A DNA stretch of 64,000 nucleotides. Origin: Candidatus Omnitrophota bacterium. Its GTDB lineage: Bacteria; Omnitrophota; Gorgyraeia; Zapsychrales; JAKLDJ01. The notes beneath the pieces were generated by a model that was not told the origin of the DNA, ran no database searches, and saw nothing but the letters and a program-made list of their open reading frames with translations. Where the stretch lies: contig JAKLDJ010000001.1 in the NCBI GenBank assembly GCA_022703585.1, positions 374,891-438,890 on the forward strand, given 5' to 3'. Positions 43,722 to 63,842 of this stretch are shown here, piece after piece. The position numbers and the translations under genes were made by a program. Position 1 is the first letter of the stretch. Each line of letters begins with the position of its first letter.

Positions 43722-44720
43722 TTATTTTACACCCAATTGTCTCATTGGATTATTGTTGGTAAAATCGAGGAAAATAGGGGCGCCGACAAGAATGGCGACA
43801 ACGGGGAAAATACAAAACAAGAGCGGGACCAGCATCTTCATGGGAGCCTTAAGGGCAATTTGTTCGCCTCTCCTAAAGCGGGCCACGCGCATATCTTCCG
43901 AAATGATAGTCAGGGCCTCCGCCACCGAAGTACCCATGCGGTCAGCCTGAATAAGAGTGCGGGTAAATGTGGTTAAGTCCGGCAATTCGTATTTTTTTCC
44001 TAAGTCGGCTAAAGCAACCCTTCTGGGTTTGCCGACATTAATCTCCTGCATGATTAAATTCATCTCGTCAATTAAGACCGAGGGCTTCGATTTGTCGACA
44101 ACCCACTTGAGAGCCAGCATAAAATCCAGCCCGGCATTAACGCACAAGCCCAAAAGGTCGATGGTGTCGGGAAGTTCTTTGACAATAGACTCTTTGATTT
44201 TCTTCGTCCTGGCCTTAAGCCAAAACTCCGGTACCAAATAACCGAAACAAAAACCAAAACCCGCCCAGGCAAATATCATATCCGGCTTTATAAGCCTGAA
44301 GGTAAGGGCCAGCACCGCGGCCATGCATAATTCTTTTATGAGAAAAAATCCTTCCGGGGTAAGGTCAAGCTTGGCAATATTAAGGTCCCTGGCCATTCTT
44401 TTTCCCAAAGGGCCGAGGGTAAAGGGCCGGTTAAACATCGAAAAATGCCGGAATGCCGTCGAGAGGGTGGATCTTTTTTTCTTGTCAATCTTGACCTCGG
44501 GCTCGACATTAAGCGGCTGCAAACGCAGGCGCGTCGTCGGCGTCTCAAAGGGCGCGAAAAAAAGAACCAGGCAGATAACAGAAAGAAAAACAAATCCTAA
44601 AATAATGGCGAGCATAGGCTCCTTATATAAGACCGAATTGACCCTGCTTCGCCAAATACTTAACATGTTTGGCTTCGCAGGGTTATACCCCCTACCTCTT
44701 TGTTTCGCTTCGCTACACAA
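43722..44720 (-). CDS. tadC: TadC-like Flp pilus assembly inner-membrane protein (T2SS F-domain family).
   Basis: 332-aa ORF with a polytopic membrane profile and a C-terminal GspF/TadC-type region (...LIQADRMGTSVAEALTIISEDMRVARFRRGEQIALKAPMKMLVPLLFCIFPVVAILVGAPIFLDF). Sits directly downstream of the tadB-like gene. Confidence 0.75.
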   Translation of the reverse strand: MCSEAKQRGRGYNPAKPNMLSIWRSRVNSVLYKEPMLAIILGFVFLSVICLVLFFAPFETPTTRLRLQPLNVEPEVKIDKKKRSTLSTAFRHFSMFNRPFTLGPLGKRMARDLNIAKLDLTPEGFFLIKELCMAAVLALTFRLIKPDMIFAWAGFGFCFGYLVPEFWLKARTKKIKESIVKELPDTIDLLGLCVNAGLDFMLALKWVVDKSKPSVLIDEMNLIMQEINVGKPRRVALADLGKKYELPDLTTFTRTLIQADRMGTSVAEALTIISEDMRVARFRRGEQIALKAPMKMLVPLLFCIFPVVAILVGAPIFLDFTNNNPMRQLGVK

Positions 44721-44739
44721 AGCGAAACAGTAGGGGTCA

Positions 44740-45597
44740 TTAAAACTCCTTAAACGTACTGATCCTCCATATCATAAAAACGCCCAAGACCTCCAGGAAA
44801 ACAGCCAGAATAAGAAGCATTCTCCCCACATCAGAATTAATCAGCTGGTCAAAGAAATTTTTGTTGGAAGAAGTGACCACGGCCGCAAAGGCAATGGGCA
44901 GGATCGACATGACCACTCCCTGGATTTTCCCCTGAAGGGTCAGATTATCGATATTTTGCTTAATCTTTTTGTTTTCCCGTATGGTGGTAACAATGCGGCT
45001 AAAAATAACAGGCAGGTTGCCGCCGGTTTCTCGGGCCAAAAGAATCGCGGTAATCATATGGTGCAGCGCCGTCGAGGGCATCCGGCTGTAGAGGCGCGCA
45101 AATGATTCTTCCAGGGAAATCCCCATTTTGTTTTCGCCTAAAAGGGTCCCGAATTCCTGGCTGACGGGAGCGGGCATTTCTTCTTTGACCACCTCCAGGG
45201 CCTGGATTAAGCTTAAGCCTCCTTTTAAAGAGCTGGATAAAATCATCAGGGTGTCTACCAGCTGGTCTTCGAATTTGGCGGTGCGCTTTTGGGTCAAGAA
45301 TTTAACATAGACGCTGGGCGCCAAAAATCCGACGACAGCGCCGGCGACAACCCCTAAAAGCTTGATCTCGGCAGGAAACGCCATAAATCCGGTAACAGCC
45401 AAAATAATGGGCCCGACCGTGTAAAAGAGTATGACACGCCTGACCCGGACCTTGATAAACATCTCATCCATGCGTTCGGCAAGTTCCCGGGAACGTCTTT
45501 TATTCATCTCTTCGATGTTTCCGTAGATGGGGGGAATGACCGAAAAAGAGAATACGGCCACGGAACCGAATATCAACAGCATGATAATAAGCCACAT
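44740..45597 (-). CDS. tadB: TadB-like Flp pilus assembly inner-membrane protein (T2SS F-domain family).
   Basis: 285-aa ORF with N-terminal TM helices and a T2SSF-like core (...LGENKMGISLEESFARLYSRMPSTALHHMITAILLARETGGNLPVIFSRIVTTIRENKKIKQNIDNLTLQGKIQGVVMSILPIAFAAVV...). Paired with the tadC-like gene, 19 nt apart. Confidence 0.75.
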   Translation of the reverse strand: MWLIIMLLIFGSVAVFSFSVIPPIYGNIEEMNKRRSRELAERMDEMFIKVRVRRVILFYTVGPIILAVTGFMAFPAEIKLLGVVAGAVVGFLAPSVYVKFLTQKRTAKFEDQLVDTLMILSSSLKGGLSLIQALEVVKEEMPAPVSQEFGTLLGENKMGISLEESFARLYSRMPSTALHHMITAILLARETGGNLPVIFSRIVTTIRENKKIKQNIDNLTLQGKIQGVVMSILPIAFAAVVTSSNKNFFDQLINSDVGRMLLILAVFLEVLGVFMIWRISTFKEF

Positions 45598-45642
45598 AGG
45601 ATTTATTCTCTAACCAAAATTACCTTTAACAAAAATACCCCA

Positions 45643-62014: not shown

Positions 62015-62047
62015 AATTTATTGTTTACTGCCCTTTGTTCAAGGCTT

Positions 62048-62896
62048 TTATTTAAAGATCTCTATCGTCTTTGCTTTTTCCGCGGCCTCTTTGGCGGCCT
62101 CGGCCTCTTCATCCGTTTCTTCTTCCTCCGGCTTTGCCTTGCCCGCCTCTTTGCCTTGGGCTACGGAAATATATTCTGCAAGGGTCTTCCAGGAGGCGGA
62201 CGGTAAAATGTAGGCTTCTCCGTCGGAATTCGGACGCAAAATCAATTGCAATGACCCATTCTGTTGGACAAATGACAGCAGGTTGGCTTCGTGGGGATTC
62301 AGCGCGAAGGTAATACTTAATGAGCCGGCCGACATTTGGTCGTCGGTGCGCCTGCCAAAATCCGTGTTGTCCCCGATGGCTAAGATTTGAATATTCTGAA
62401 AAAGCATGACAATCAAGGATCCCTCCGTTTTAAGGCTCTTGATGCTTTCCGGAGGAGAATTAAGGTGCGCGATAACATCAACGTAATCACCGGGCGCCAC
62501 AAGGCCGCCGACGGCAGAAGTCCTGTCGATAACAACCGTCACCGCCCTTTTTCCGGGAGGTGTCTTAACATTAACCGGTGATTTTACTTGTTCGGCAGTT
62601 TGAGAGGATGCGCTTAAAGACGCTGCCATTTTTTGGACCTCTTGCTGGATAGAGGCGTTTTGCTGCTGCAACGCGCTGGCCAGCATCTGGTTTTGGCCTT
62701 CAACATTCTTGAGACGTTCCTCGAGCTGGGCAACTTGCTGGCGCGTCATACCGCCCATGGAACTCACAATCGCCTTTTCTTTCGTATCGATATAGTTATT
62801 GGTTAAAAATACGGCGATAAGCCCTAAGATAACCGCCACCGCAAGGATAATGACTTTTTTCTTGTCGATAGACTTAATGTCAAACGGCAAGGGCAT
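62048..62896 (-). CDS. cpaB: CpaB/RcpC Flp pilus assembly protein (282 aa).
   Basis: N-terminal TM helix, then RAVTVVIDRTSAVGGLVAPGDYVDVIAHL, which is the SAF/CpaB signature. AAGGAG SD lies 8 nt upstream of the ATG at 62896. Confidence 0.75.
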   Translation of the reverse strand: MPLPFDIKSIDKKKVIILAVAVILGLIAVFLTNNYIDTKEKAIVSSMGGMTRQQVAQLEERLKNVEGQNQMLASALQQQNASIQQEVQKMAASLSASSQTAEQVKSPVNVKTPPGKRAVTVVIDRTSAVGGLVAPGDYVDVIAHLNSPPESIKSLKTEGSLIVMLFQNIQILAIGDNTDFGRRTDDQMSAGSLSITFALNPHEANLLSFVQQNGSLQLILRPNSDGEAYILPSASWKTLAEYISVAQGKEAGKAKPEEEETDEEAEAAKEAAEKAKTIEIFK

Positions 62897-62900
62897 AATA

Positions 62901-63842
62901 CTACTCCTTTAAAAGCTCTTCGTTGGTTTCGGGAAGCGTCTTTTCTTTAAGTTCGTTTAAAAGCTCAAGCACCTTCTGTTCCTGTTTGGAAAGCAGGAGG
63001 CCAGTCTTGATATCGTCTTTGACCTCTTCTAAGGTTTTAAGCTTTCCGCCTTTCTTCTCTTCCACCTTAATAATATAGTAGCCGTCCGGGCCTTTAAAGA
63101 CACTACTGATGGCGCCAATCTCGAGCGATAAAGCGGCGGTCTGCATTTCCGGGAATTTAAACTCTTCAACCGCCCCTAAGTCTCCGCCCTGCGCGGCGCT
63201 GGCACTTTTTGATCGTGTCTGCGCCATAACAGCAAAGTCAGTGCCTTTAAGAAGTTCGATTAAAATATCTTTGGCCTCCGCTTGGGTAGGAACCATGATT
63301 TCTCTGATACGCCATTCGGCGGGCTCGGAAAGCTCGGGGATAACATCTTTGTTTTTGTCGTAAAAGTCCTGTATCTCGGCGGGCGTGACATCGACTCCGT
63401 CGGTAATATTGGCGACAATTTTTTGGACAAGAAGGGCGCGCCTGAATTTATCCACATCGTCCATAATTTCTTTATCCCGGGCGAGGCCGGTGCGCTCCGC
63501 CTCCTGGACCAAAAGCTCCTGGCGCACTAACTGTTCCAACACTTGCTTTTTGAATTCCAGATTGTCGGTATCAAGGCCGGGAACGGCTTCCTTGATAGCC
63601 TCAAGTTCTTTAGCGAATTCTTCTTTGGTCAACGTCCATGAGCCGACCTTGGCCAGCGCGCCAGCGGGCAGGGCAGATTGTGTCTGCGGTTGGGCTACGG
63701 CGGCAGGCGGATTTTGAGACTTCTTGCTTGCTGCCGACGGGAAATACTTGGAAAGGAAGGGGATCTTGTCACAGCCGGAAACGGCTAAGAAAAAAATGCA
63801 TCCATAAATCAAAAAGTTGGCTTTCGTTATCAGGAATTTCAT
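62901..63842 (-). CDS. Parvulin-type peptidyl-prolyl isomerase lipoprotein (SurA/PrsA-like), 313 aa.
   Basis: Lipobox FLAVSGC near the N-terminus. PpiC domain ...GDLGAVEEFKFPEMQTAALSLEIGAISSVFKGPDGYYIIKVEEKKGG. Sits immediately upstream of cpaB with a 4-nt gap. Confidence 0.7.
   Translation of the reverse strand: MKFLITKANFLIYGCIFFLAVSGCDKIPFLSKYFPSAASKKSQNPPAAVAQPQTQSALPAGALAKVGSWTLTKEEFAKELEAIKEAVPGLDTDNLEFKKQVLEQLVRQELLVQEAERTGLARDKEIMDDVDKFRRALLVQKIVANITDGVDVTPAEIQDFYDKNKDVIPELSEPAEWRIREIMVPTQAEAKDILIELLKGTDFAVMAQTRSKSASAAQGGDLGAVEEFKFPEMQTAALSLEIGAISSVFKGPDGYYIIKVEEKKGGKLKTLEEVKDDIKTGLLLSKQEQKVLELLNELKEKTLPETNEELLKE

Follow-up and report, generated by a model that had tools for sequence, protein, structure and literature searches.

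Gene order and envelope machinery

The window, a stretch of 64,000 nucleotides from a wastewater/digester Omnitrophota bacterium, carries on its minus strand, in this order, genes for a peptidyl-prolyl isomerase (PPIase), RcpC, a secretin with TonB_C, a ParA/MinD plus CpaF protein, a DUF192 protein, a 978-aa protein, seven Flp-like and four larger pilin-like proteins, TadB and TadC, and then a giant ORF. The same pilus locus was found in several assemblies of this organism. Gene content and order as given in the original prediction were borne out by coordinates, Pfam domains and motifs. All of these genes are co-oriented, as had been claimed of the whole locus, with the exception of a zinc-ribbon ORF that lies on the plus strand.

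The PPIase is of the SurA/PpiC type with an N-terminal hydrophobic stretch (62901..63842, minus strand; Pfam Rotamase_2 1.2e-16, SurA_N_3 1e-7), and its gene heads the conserved block in 8/8 genomes. It is followed on the same strand by RcpC/CpaB (62048..62896; Pfam RcpC 8.5e-22) and by an RcpA/CpaC-like secretin (60353..62014; Pfam Secretin 2.7e-40, T2SS-T3SS_pil_N 9.8e-9) that ends in a TonB_C domain (5.8e-17, aa 473-550), a fusion seen in 7/7 relatives inspected. The next minus-strand gene (58192..60351) joins a ParA/MinD-type (TadZ-like) ATPase domain (Pfam AAA_31/ParA/CbiA, aa 4-240) to a CpaF/TadA secretion ATPase (T2SSE 6.3e-58, aa 367-646). Its top NCBIfam match was the TadA family TIGR03819 (314.6 bits). 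Nearly all of the best 120 homologue clusters share the ParA/MinD-CpaF architecture (about 716-735 aa), and the organism names on these 120 are all Omnitrophota/Omnitrophica. Both of the predicted fusions of usually separate parts are thus present by Pfam and conserved in relatives. The label tadZ held for the ParA/MinD ATPase domain and not for the remainder, since no Pfam domain was found N-terminal to it and hence no receiver-like N-domain was detected.

A DUF192 gene (57838..58182, minus strand; Pfam DUF192 1.7e-16) comes after the ATPase gene, as it does in 7/7 relatives at 45-50% identity (tblastn). The two T2SSF platform proteins lie at the other end of the cluster, also on the minus strand: TadB (44740..45597; Pfam T2SSF 6.4e-18) and TadC (43722..44615; T2SSF 1.3e-13; 297 aa as annotated), the latter 100% identical to P0121. 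On the proposal that the pilus is retractable, the locus offers a single ATPase, with a second motor of the PilT kind absent. A prepilin peptidase (A24 family) was found neither in the window nor in the flanking 6-10 kb of the 8 inspected genomes, and pilin maturation would therefore rely on a gene elsewhere.

The very short or overlapping junctions that had been noted were found inside sub-blocks: they measure 4 (PPIase-RcpC), 33, 1 and 9 nt at the 5' end and 20-66 nt among the pilin genes, where the 1083-aa and 134-aa genes overlap by 1 nt. They do not extend across the whole locus, which is divided by larger gaps of 463, 708, 240 and 1,163 nt containing promoter-like and terminator-like sites.

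Pilin-like genes

Each of the seven small ORFs encodes a [GA]|Q-x3-E-Y motif with a hydrophobic helix after it. The first four, flp1-flp4 (52511..53729, minus strand), specify Flp-like prepilins of 58, 64, 117 and 108 aa with the form G|Q-x3-E-Y and matches to Pfam Flp_Fap and Class_IIIsignal, which are marginal both for flp1 (Flp_Fap, 31.4 bits against a cut-off of 32.2) and for flp2 (Class_IIIsignal, 26.6 bits against 23.7). Relatives keep this size series at about 52, 68, 120 and 108 aa. Past flp4 lies a strong intrinsic-terminator-like hairpin with a 20-bp stem and a T run (52455..52497, minus strand), and a similar hairpin follows the fourth pilin gene in L171. Because the unit is closed by this strong terminator, flp1-flp4 probably encode the abundant subunits. 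Next come flp5-flp7 (51180..52270, minus strand), Flp-like prepilins of 129, 114 and 104 aa with the motif [AG]|Q-x3-E-Y, whose homologues were recovered in 51-62 of 84 loci by tblastn.

The four larger pilin-like ORFs, all on the minus strand, encode 476, 87, 1083 and 134 aa with 15, 1, 42 and 12 Cys, respectively. The 476-aa protein (49685..51115; motif G|QTASEL) is a putative minor pilin or tip subunit, and homologues of 412-728 aa hold the same position in most loci. The 87-aa TadE-like pseudopilin (49362..49625; A|QVIIEF) has a weak Pfam TadE match (E = 0.013). The third protein (46047..49298) has a TadG-like N-terminus, G|QVALLL, and an uncertain start codon that gives 1083, 1018 or 992 aa depending on the gene caller; its homologues occur in 68/84 loci and reach 1147-1319 aa in distant relatives. 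The last (45643..46047) is a Cys-rich Flp-like pilin with the motif A|ASMIEY and a homologue in 73/84 loci. The description of these genes as TadE/G-like draws on their N-terminal motifs, with Pfam TadE matching the 87-aa ORF only. Altogether the prepilin-like proteins number eleven and form a size series that is conserved; 10 of them carry a Flp-type G/A|xxxxE[Y/L/F] site.

Zinc-ribbon ORF and 978-aa protein

The plus-strand ORF (57581..57805) encodes a double zinc ribbon of 74 aa (Pfam DZR_2 1.5e-6), and a full-length homologue with 47-58% identity was found at the equal position and orientation in 4/7 relatives. The 978-aa conserved protein (54438..57374, minus strand) had no Pfam match. 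It consists of a paired/Tc1-transposase-type HTH (about aa 1-60), a P/E-rich disordered linker that is expanded here (about aa 70-520) and a C-terminal domain of roughly 450 aa with a Tn5-transposase-like fold. With this combination the protein looks transposase-derived, which is possibly new. Its leader contains a copy of the AATGTCCAA motif (57383..57391, minus strand). In 8/8 genomes this motif lies 10-43 nt upstream of the ATG of the 978-aa homologue, with an extended -10 element upstream of the motif. A terminator-like hairpin follows the gene (54079..54104, minus strand) and has an equivalent at the same place in L171.

The giant gene and its control region

The minus strand has a frame free of stops from 42597 down to base 1, with a likely ATG at 42558. 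The giant ORF occupies at least 14,186 codons of the window and continues past its edge; according to public assemblies the full length is 85,803 aa, of which 1..42558 represents the 5' 16.5%. It is the longest bacterial gene on record and matches the longest ORF of West-Roberts et al. 2023 (10.1101/2023.11.21.568195), given there as 257,412 bp / 85,804 aa from wastewater. A signal-anchor helix (aa 46-65) lies at the N-terminus. Just outside this first TM helix is a C39-like cysteine peptidase domain (aa 204-285 = 41706-41949, minus strand), the sole Pfam match above cut-off within the 14,186 aa, whose N-C, H and D residues are invariant among 23 homologues. M50 and HTH matches in the window part fell below the Pfam threshold, and these three are all that Pfam gives on the lytic role that had been proposed. 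The same 14,186 aa contain at least seven strongly hydrophobic segments, and for this reason the giant protein appears to be anchored in the membrane rather than freely secreted.

Between tadC and the giant gene lies a control region of 1,163 nt (42559..43721, minus strand). Copies of the AATGTCCA motif occur in it at 43680-43688, 43636-43644, 43606-43614, 42582-42588 and 42551-42557 (minus strand). One 15-nt motif is present both in the 978-aa gene's leader and upstream of the giant gene, and this sharing is possibly new. A conserved promoter with an extended -10 element, TTGACA-16-TGATATATT (43017-43044, minus strand), is predicted from the sequence and would give the giant gene a leader of about 450 nt. 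The control region also contains three AAGCCACGGA repeats (42949-42958, 42837-42846 and 42799-42808, minus strand) and a conserved hairpin with a U run after it (about 42866-42913). The 1,163-nt gap, the predicted promoter of the giant gene and the hairpins resembling terminators speak against the cluster and the giant gene having to be transcribed together.

Linkage of the pilus cluster to giant genes

We surveyed the linkage in both directions. In one direction we took the 58 GTDB species-representative loci that extend at least 3 kb downstream beyond TadC. Of these, 48 had a homologue of the giant protein's N-terminal module (TM + C39) there on the same strand, starting 0.2-5.7 kb past TadC and open to the locus end. 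Conversely, we took the 53 metagenomic giant-gene starts that have 3 kb or more of sequence upstream, and at 50 of them TadC was found upstream on the same strand. A Tad-like cluster is thus directly upstream of giant genes in most Omnitrophota examined. The adjacency was not universal, as had been asked of it: at the remaining 10/58 loci different genes, mostly of ordinary size, come after TadC with no giant gene in the available downstream sequence, which indicates that the pilus machine can exist without one nearby, and at least one lineage has a pheST...gltX block between TadC and the giant gene. The locus order itself, of which the two fusions, DUF192, the zinc ribbon in antisense orientation and the 978-aa protein are all part, was conserved across the Omnitrophota relatives examined. 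Since the same order recurred in every related genome examined, the arrangement is not a chance pattern.

Comparison with known Tad systems

Tad/Flp (type IVc) pilus loci are represented by flp-tadV-rcpCAB-tadZABCDEFG of Aggregatibacter actinomycetemcomitans and cpaA-F of Caulobacter. In common with these, the locus has a CpaF/TadA ATPase, TadB and TadC with a single T2SSF each, RcpC, a secretin with a pilus N domain, a ParA/MinD-type TadZ-like module, G|xxxxEY pilins and TadE/F/G-like pseudopilins. In contrast to them, it has the TadZ-like domain fused to the ATPase with no receiver-like N-domain detected, the secretin bears TonB_C, and TadV, TadD and RcpB are absent. The conserved Flp-like genes number seven, and five of these encode 104-129 aa where Flp is typically roughly 50-75 aa; the pseudopilins are Cys-rich and reach about 1,000-1,300 aa. 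Gene order also differs, with a PPIase, DUF192, a zinc-ribbon protein and an HTH/Tn5-like protein added. The layout is non-canonical, as originally predicted, only relative to proteobacterial Tad loci; within Omnitrophota it is standard, and the extra genes and the seven-pilin expansion are conserved in the relatives examined.

The Kil apparatus of Myxococcus xanthus is reportedly a Tad-derived envelope machine that this predator uses on prey contact. The Omnitrophota machine is likewise Tad-derived and may also act on prey contact. We know of no giant gene linked to the Kil system, nor, to our knowledge, does it have the Omnitrophota-specific fusions and extra genes.

Discussion

We consider it very probable that the window contains a Tad (type IVc)/type-II-secretion-like pilus cluster in its Omnitrophota form, together with the 5' end of the giant gene of 85,803 codons, the locus type of West-Roberts et al. 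2023. The cluster encodes the platform in the inner membrane (TadB and TadC), a single CpaF-type motor with its fused TadZ-like domain, RcpC, the outer-membrane secretin with its TonB_C tail and the periplasmic-type PPIase. The machine would assemble an envelope-spanning fibre. The large Cys-rich proteins may provide a disulfide-stabilised tip or adhesin; this role is a guess, since the large pilin-like proteins had no match in Pfam, NCBIfam or PDB sequence searches. Such a fibre might mediate attachment to a host or prey cell, with the surface-anchored giant protein acting alongside it. The giant gene, which has a conserved extended -10 promoter of its own and a structured leader, would be a separate transcription unit, in which case the coupling is probably regulatory and functional, not translational.

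It is unlikely, in our estimate, that the cluster is instead a dedicated type-II-secretion-like exporter whose eleven-protein short pseudopilus pushes the giant protein, or fragments freed by its C39/M50-like modules, through the secretin. The many distinct pilin-like subunits in fixed order do resemble the major and minor pseudopilin sets of T2SS, and synteny with the candidate cargo is very tight. The giant protein also has a C39-like domain with intact Cys/His/Asp and an HExxH...DGG M50-like module, and West-Roberts et al. term the locus a secretion system homologous to T2SS. However, the motifs of the ATPase, the platform, RcpC and the pilins belong to the Tad/Flp and not the GspE/F/G type, the giant protein looks membrane-anchored, and 10/58 loci lack an adjacent giant gene. 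The published view is that SecA-like domains of giant proteins may manage their own export.

Still less probable is an inherited gene order without functional coupling, in which a pilus for general attachment or motility keeps its ancestral place in a small, rarely rearranged genome: the separate promoter, the variable intergenic distance (0.2-6.2 kb), the inserted housekeeping block, the 10/58 loci without a giant gene and the upstream neighbours gyrBA, ldh and CN hydrolase, whose conservation in several genomes suggests generally stable synteny, would fit it, but linkage persists at a TadC identity of just 51-61% across many species, a distance over which unrelated neighbours normally scatter, genes upstream of the PPIase do vary between genomes, and the 15-nt motif is common to the 978-aa HTH gene leader and the giant-gene upstream region.

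The linkage of the pilus locus to the giant gene is real and was already published in 2023. West-Roberts et al. 2023 (10.1101/2023.11.21.568195) describe a conserved locus upstream of Omnitrophota giant genes with over 10 subunits, homologues of gspD/E/F, rcpC, a PPIase of the Rotamase_2 type and numerous small class-III-signal-peptide genes, and giants with a C39 domain at the N-terminus. Every component listed there is also present here and, with the two fusions, DUF192 and the 978-aa protein set aside, nothing essential differs. A term search of that text for Tad, pilus, promoter, intergenic and riboswitch gave no match, and on this evidence the locus was not called Tad there and promoters or intergenic elements were not treated. 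The idea that the apparatus may accompany the giant protein in cell-cell attack was likewise already put forward by West-Roberts et al. 2023. In a later preprint, 13/14 giants have genes for secretion or pili at their flanks.

Another parallel in the same phylum, compared by its published description, is Velamenicoccus archaeovorus LiM (Kizina et al. 2022, cited in Seymour et al. 2023). This is a different species, and its giant ORF is smaller, at 39,678 aa. According to Seymour et al. 2023, its Tad complex is complete and is expressed when it grows in co-culture with Methanosaeta, and giant-ORF peptides are up 3-fold in attached cells. The same source cites Tad pili of Bdellovibrio-like predators.

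Gene content and layout of the pilus locus

ORF calling combined with Pfam and NCBIfam searches identified 19 co-oriented ORFs on the minus strand, running from 63842 to 43722, plus one small plus-strand ORF. Apart from the corrections that follow, the gene content and order given in the original prediction were essentially right. The minus-strand genes encode a PPIase (Rotamase_2/SurA_N), an RcpC homologue (Pfam RcpC, 8.5e-22), a secretin (Secretin, 2.7e-40; T2SS-T3SS_pil_N, 9.8e-9) with a C-terminal TonB_C domain, a 719-aa fused ATPase in which a ParA/MinD-type domain (KGGVGKT, aa 4-240) is joined to a T2SSE domain (6.3e-58, aa 367-646), a DUF192 protein, and the proteins TadB and TadC, which carry one T2SSF domain each (6.4e-18 and 1.3e-13, respectively). 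The interval between the DUF192 gene and tadB holds the gene for a 978-aa protein without a family match (54438-57374), the seven genes flp1 to flp7 (58-129 aa), whose products show a [GA]|Q-x3-E-Y site followed by a hydrophobic helix, and four larger ORFs for pilin-like proteins (476, 87, 1083 and 134 aa, containing 15, 1, 42 and 12 cysteines). The zinc-ribbon ORF, named among the extra genes of the locus, sits on the opposite (plus) strand. The short junctions that had been described do exist inside sub-blocks, where neighboring genes are separated by 1-66 nt and one pair overlaps by 1 nt. Between sub-blocks, however, there are gaps of 463, 708, 240 and 1,163 nt, and these contain promoter-like and terminator-like sites.

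This layout is the norm in the lineage. Seven relatives with 65-79% ATPase identity keep the order PPIase, RcpC, secretin with TonB_C, ParA/MinD-CpaF fusion and DUF192, followed by a homologue of the 978-aa protein (566-827 aa), about seven small pilin genes, and then proteins of ~480-570, ~100 and ~1,150-1,320 aa. By tblastn, DUF192 was present in all seven, and the antisense zinc-ribbon ORF was found in four of them at 47-58% identity. The fused ParA/MinD-CpaF architecture occurred in nearly all of the best 120 ATPase homologue clusters. Features that had been called non-canonical are thus present but not unusual within Omnitrophota, where the relatives examined all show this layout. Across GTDB loci, the ORFs bearing the pilin motif form a recurring size series (~52, 68, 120, 108, 115-130, 110, 104, 450-600, 95 and 110-150 aa), with a median of 8 such ORFs in the last 10 kb before TadC. 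When best tblastn matches were used to pair the seven flp genes strictly one to one, only 8 of 35 loci came out strictly collinear, because the paralogues cross-match; the conservation of sizes and positions along the series is more telling. Since this series and order recur in relatives, the supposed huge expansion of pilins is a long-established, fixed set of different subunits and did not arise by recent amplification.

In the genome of the window (L001-L004, positions 1-6230, beyond window base 64000), genes for a 1,710-aa hybrid PAS/receiver sensor kinase and a receiver-HisKA-HATPase protein come before the locus, as does an unannotated ORF of 250-335 aa. Several relatives have gyrB-gyrA, a CN hydrolase and ldh upstream of the locus in place of the sensor kinase set.

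The locus encodes parts of a Tad-type machine

We compared the locus with the Tad/Flp system part by part. The ATPase is of the CpaF/TadA type, and among NCBIfam models it matches TIGR03819 (TadA family) best, with 314.6 bits, under the equivalog cut-off of 373. The platform consists of separate TadB and TadC proteins, and some sources name the TadC homologues 'tight adherence protein C'. An RcpA/CpaC-type secretin with a pilus N domain is accompanied by RcpC/CpaB, the TonB_C domain of the secretin being an extra. TadZ/CpaE is an atypical ParA/MinD ATPase with a receiver-like N-domain and is a separate protein. Here, a TadZ-like ParA/MinD domain is present but fused to the ATPase, and Pfam detected no receiver-like N-domain, or any other domain, ahead of it. 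Flp-type prepilins are represented by eight ORFs with [GA]|[QA]xxxEY and a following hydrophobic helix; flp1 matched Flp_Fap at 31.4 bits (cut-off 32.2) and flp2 matched Class_IIIsignal at 26.6 bits (cut-off 23.7). For the TadE/TadF/TadG pseudopilins we found N-terminal motifs and a weak TadE match only (E = 0.013, 16 bits, cut-off 22.9). Family assignment with Pfam and NCBIfam gave nothing significant for flp3-7 or for the 134- and 87-aa proteins, and no family match for the 476-aa and 1083-aa proteins. An A24-family prepilin peptidase (TadV/CpaA) was absent from the ORFs and Pfam matches within the window and was also not found in the 6-10 kb flanks of 8 genomes, and no TPR or RcpB-like gene that would correspond to TadD (TPR lipoprotein/pilotin) or RcpB was seen among the locus ORFs. 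This Tad-specific membership test shows which parts the locus lacks (TadV, TadD) and which it carries as fusions.

The main rival explanation is that the locus builds a type II secretion-like exporter for the giant protein or for fragments of it. Type II (Gsp) systems are recognized by GspE, a single GspF with two T2SSF domains, GspC/L/M, and the pseudopilins GspG-K with a G|F/M-xxxE N-methylation site. The window locus does not present these hallmarks: the GspE model scored 39.5 against a cut-off of 630 and the GspD model 130 against 351, the platform is made of two single-domain T2SSF proteins instead of a single two-domain GspF, GspC/L/M were not found in the locus, and the pilins carry Flp-type motifs, which differ from the Gsp pseudopilin site. 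Because the components belong to the Tad type and the giant protein appears to be membrane-anchored, we rate the exporter lower than a Tad-type pilus.

Linkage of the locus to the giant gene

The prediction that the giant gene lies next to this Tad locus in relatives was examined in both directions. In the forward survey, a TadC alignment was searched against a single genome for each GTDB species; the 80 loci recovered, almost all from Omnitrophota, were compared with all window proteins by tblastn. Among the 58 loci with at least 3 kb of sequence downstream of TadC, 48 had a homologue of the giant N-terminus (first ~400 residues, 29-49% identity) after TadC, on the same strand, starting 0.2-5.7 kb past it and free of stops as far as the retrieved sequence extends (up to 3,258 codons). 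Mostly ordinary genes followed TadC in the other 10 loci (for example pheS/pheT, or genes like those for glutaminyl-tRNA synthetase, NADH dehydrogenase and glycosyltransferase). In the reverse survey, an alignment of the giant N-terminal module returned 80 metagenomic loci, 53 of them with at least 3 kb upstream, and TadC was located upstream of 50 of these 53 giant-gene starts, on the same strand and 0.35-6.2 kb away. The linkage between tadC and the giant gene is strong in both directions, yet not absolute. Two of the three reverse exceptions (L110 and L125) have pheT upstream and then five further genes ending in a gltX-like gene, while one forward exception (L051) reads TadC-pheS-pheT. These cases point to the insertion of a housekeeping block between tadC and the giant gene in a single lineage, which would extend the linkage to roughly 10-13 kb. 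The physical coupling that had been claimed is a conserved neighborhood and not an operon fusion.

Both the parts list of the Tad-type machine and its conserved neighborhood with the giant gene are established. In the mechanism we propose, the platform and the fused motor would assemble Flp-like subunits through RcpC and the secretin. The products of flp1-4 would probably be the abundant subunits, since their unit is closed by a strong terminator, and the large Cys-rich proteins would probably serve as tip or adhesin components. The fiber would then serve in attachment to host or prey, acting alongside the membrane-anchored giant protein.

The ultra-small Omnitrophota are believed to live as predators or parasites, and no prokaryotic genes longer than their giant genes are known. 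The conserved pilus/secretion cluster is the best genomic clue to how an 85,803-aa protein is made, exported and used. The locus corresponds to the type described by West-Roberts et al. 2023 in its more than 10 genes, its gspD/gspE/gspF and rcpC homologues, its Rotamase_2 PPIase and its many small class-III-signal-peptide genes, and also in its position immediately upstream of a co-oriented giant gene with an N-terminal C39 domain near a signal/TM segment. That preprint (bioRxiv 10.1101/2023.11.21.568195) reports that C39 peptidase domains lie close to the N-termini of the giants. The phylum agrees as well: for both the ATPase and TadC, NCBI has identical proteins under the name 'Candidatus Omnitrophota bacterium'. 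In a 2026 preprint, 13 of 14 giants are reported to have secretion or pilus genes on their flanks, among them a 'Tad-pilus assembly cassette', and Seymour et al. 2023 reported Tad complexes in most Velamenicoccia and, for V. archaeovorus, both the expression of a Tad complex and a giant protein induced on contact. With these reports, the locus observation and its functional hypothesis are both already published, for this very gene. The original observation is real and its interpretation reasonable; what is added here are the two-way linkage counts, the Tad membership test, the giant-gene promoter and a regulator candidate, and it is the regulatory observations that are worth pursuing further.

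Transcription units and the giant-gene promoter

A terminator-like hairpin with a 20-bp stem and a T run follows flp4 (52497-52455, minus strand), and a second terminator-like hairpin follows the 978-aa gene (54104-54079, minus strand). Both are found at equivalent places (13082-13121 and 11588-11614) in L171, a relative at 79% identity. These strong, conserved terminator-like hairpins after the fourth pilin gene and after the 978-aa gene imply that flp1-4 are a unit of their own, one that is probably expressed at a high level.

The gap between tadC and the giant gene contains a near-consensus promoter, TTGACA-16-TGATATATT, with an extended -10 element (43044-43017, minus strand), which is conserved in two relatives (TadC identity 90% and 80%) despite diverged surrounding DNA. 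Of 115 non-redundant regions of 900 nt each from upstream of giant genes, 104 have the extended -10 element (TGnTATA[CAT]T) on the sense strand and 10 on the antisense strand; shuffled sequences averaged ~14. From the conserved promoter, the enrichment of the extended -10 element and the terminator-like sites, we conclude that the giant gene is very probably its own transcription unit. The evidence for a conserved promoter belonging to the giant gene itself is an addition of the present analysis.

The giant-gene leader of ~450 nt has a fold more stable than its shuffled versions (z = -5.0). It contains three sense copies of AAGCCACGGA (42949-42958, 42837-42846 and 42799-42808, minus strand), an element that was also found upstream of giant genes in ~20 other loci, in one to three copies each and with a strand bias of 36 sense versus 4. 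Adjoining these copies is a conserved GGGCUGCCGAA...UUCGGCAGCC hairpin with a U run (~42866-42913, minus strand), and copies and hairpin are both kept in the homologous loci L170 and L086. This leader element could be an attenuator or a protein-binding RNA. A c-di-GMP riboswitch had been tempting because pilZ genes are reported to follow giant genes, but the Rfam c-di-GMP-I match directly downstream of the promoter (42899-43003, minus strand; E = 0.88) is probably due to chance, with 23.5 bits against a gathering score of 35 and no match in 8 related loci at a permissive threshold.

A shared motif and a candidate regulator

Counting k-mers in the DNA upstream of giant genes, we found a motif, AATGTCCA, with the extended 15-nt consensus TAATGTCCAWTCTGA, which occurs in both orientations. 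Its density is 1.69 per kb upstream of giant genes and 0.058 per kb elsewhere in those loci, a 29-fold difference, and it is present in 76 of 114 loci. In the GTDB loci, 129 of 161 copies (80%) lie between TadC and the giant-gene start. Copies in the window are located in the tadC-giant gap at 43680-43688, 43636-43644, 43606-43614, 42582-42588 and 42551-42557, one of which overlaps the giant ATG, and a further copy is found at 57383-57391, ~10 nt upstream of the 978-aa gene's ATG. All eight genomes (including L165, L166 and L171-L175) have the motif 10-43 nt before the ATG of this gene or its homologue, downstream of an extended -10 element. TAATGTCCAWTCTGA may be a shared operator, and its placement suggests that one regulator could control both the unit of the 978-aa gene and that of the giant gene. 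The obvious candidate is the 978-aa protein.

Homologues of this protein (549-739 aa) begin with a conserved segment of ~70 aa and continue through a P/E-rich linker, which varies and is greatly expanded in the window's protein, to a C-terminal domain of ~450 aa. A word-indexed protein search with the C-terminal domain returned 8 homologues, low-complexity matches having probably filled the candidate slots, while an exhaustive profile search returned 880 representative clusters, 613 of them at E <= 1e-30; among the best 150 of the 880, most match nearly the whole profile. Pfam and a PDB sequence search gave no match. The AlphaFold2 model of the C-terminal domain reached a pLDDT of 75.8 and a pTM of 0.72. 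The N-terminal segment is modeled as a bundle of three helices, most similar to Pax paired domains and the DNA-binding domain of Tc3 transposase, in agreement with a faint IS630 HTH match. DDE transposases of the IS4/Tn5 type combine an RNase-H-like fold, a conserved DDE triad and a YREK signature, and belong to multi-copy elements with terminal inverted repeats. The 978-aa protein does not qualify as one of them, and its 'Y-x2-R-W...E' stretch, which is similar to the YREK signature, is not conserved. An insertion sequence interrupting the locus was rejected on the grounds of synteny in 8 of 8 genomes, a uniformly full-length family and a degenerate catalytic signature. Weak to moderate evidence from the modeled folds suggests instead a transposase-derived DNA-binding protein fixed in the locus.

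It is conceivable, though we consider it rather doubtful, that the 978-aa protein is a domesticated transposase (paired/Tc1-type HTH, degenerate Tn5-like core) serving as the locus's own regulator, which would bind TAATGTCCAWTCTGA and couple pilus assembly to giant-gene expression. If true, the protein would link pilus assembly to the expression of the largest known bacterial gene. The HTH/Tn5-like protein and the shared 15-nt motif provide a concrete, testable candidate for such a regulatory link. Within the accessible literature on the giant-gene locus, we found no mention of the 978-aa family, of the TAATGTCCAWTCTGA motif or of the conserved giant-gene promoter.

Extent and domains of the giant protein

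The reading frame of the giant gene is free of stops from 42597 to base 1, with a probable ATG at 42558 preceded by a GAGG Shine-Dalgarno sequence. In ENA assembly ERZ761563 (L168), the gene that begins 1,163 nt past tadC is called at 85,803 residues (257,412 bp including the stop codon). Since this length matches the longest ORF given by West-Roberts et al. 2023 (85,804 aa; bioRxiv 10.1101/2023.11.21.568195), the window holds the first 16.5% of that gene, 14,186 codons, with its upstream neighbors. The window locus was also found in several digester and sludge assemblies. In another assembly (L169, ENA ERZ27257456), the same giant gene is called at 77,848 aa, versus 85,803 aa in L168; the difference could reflect assembly collapse, strain variation or a frameshift.

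The Cys, His and Asp of the C39-like domain are kept in 23 homologues, and by the positive-inside rule this domain should face the periplasm. Further into the protein, a sub-threshold Peptidase_M50 match (25.3 bits, cut-off 27.2) lies within a hydrophobic stretch at aa ~12,094-12,312 (window ~5625-6279, minus strand). It contains the sole HExxH of the 14,186 aa, HEPRH at aa 12,104, with an NGLPIHPMDGG motif downstream, and looks like a site-2-protease-like module inside the giant protein. Weak matches to HTH_29, HTH_23 and HTH_28, families of the transposase-type HTH, were also observed at aa ~7,251-7,284 (window ~20709-20808, minus strand; E ~2-5e-4).
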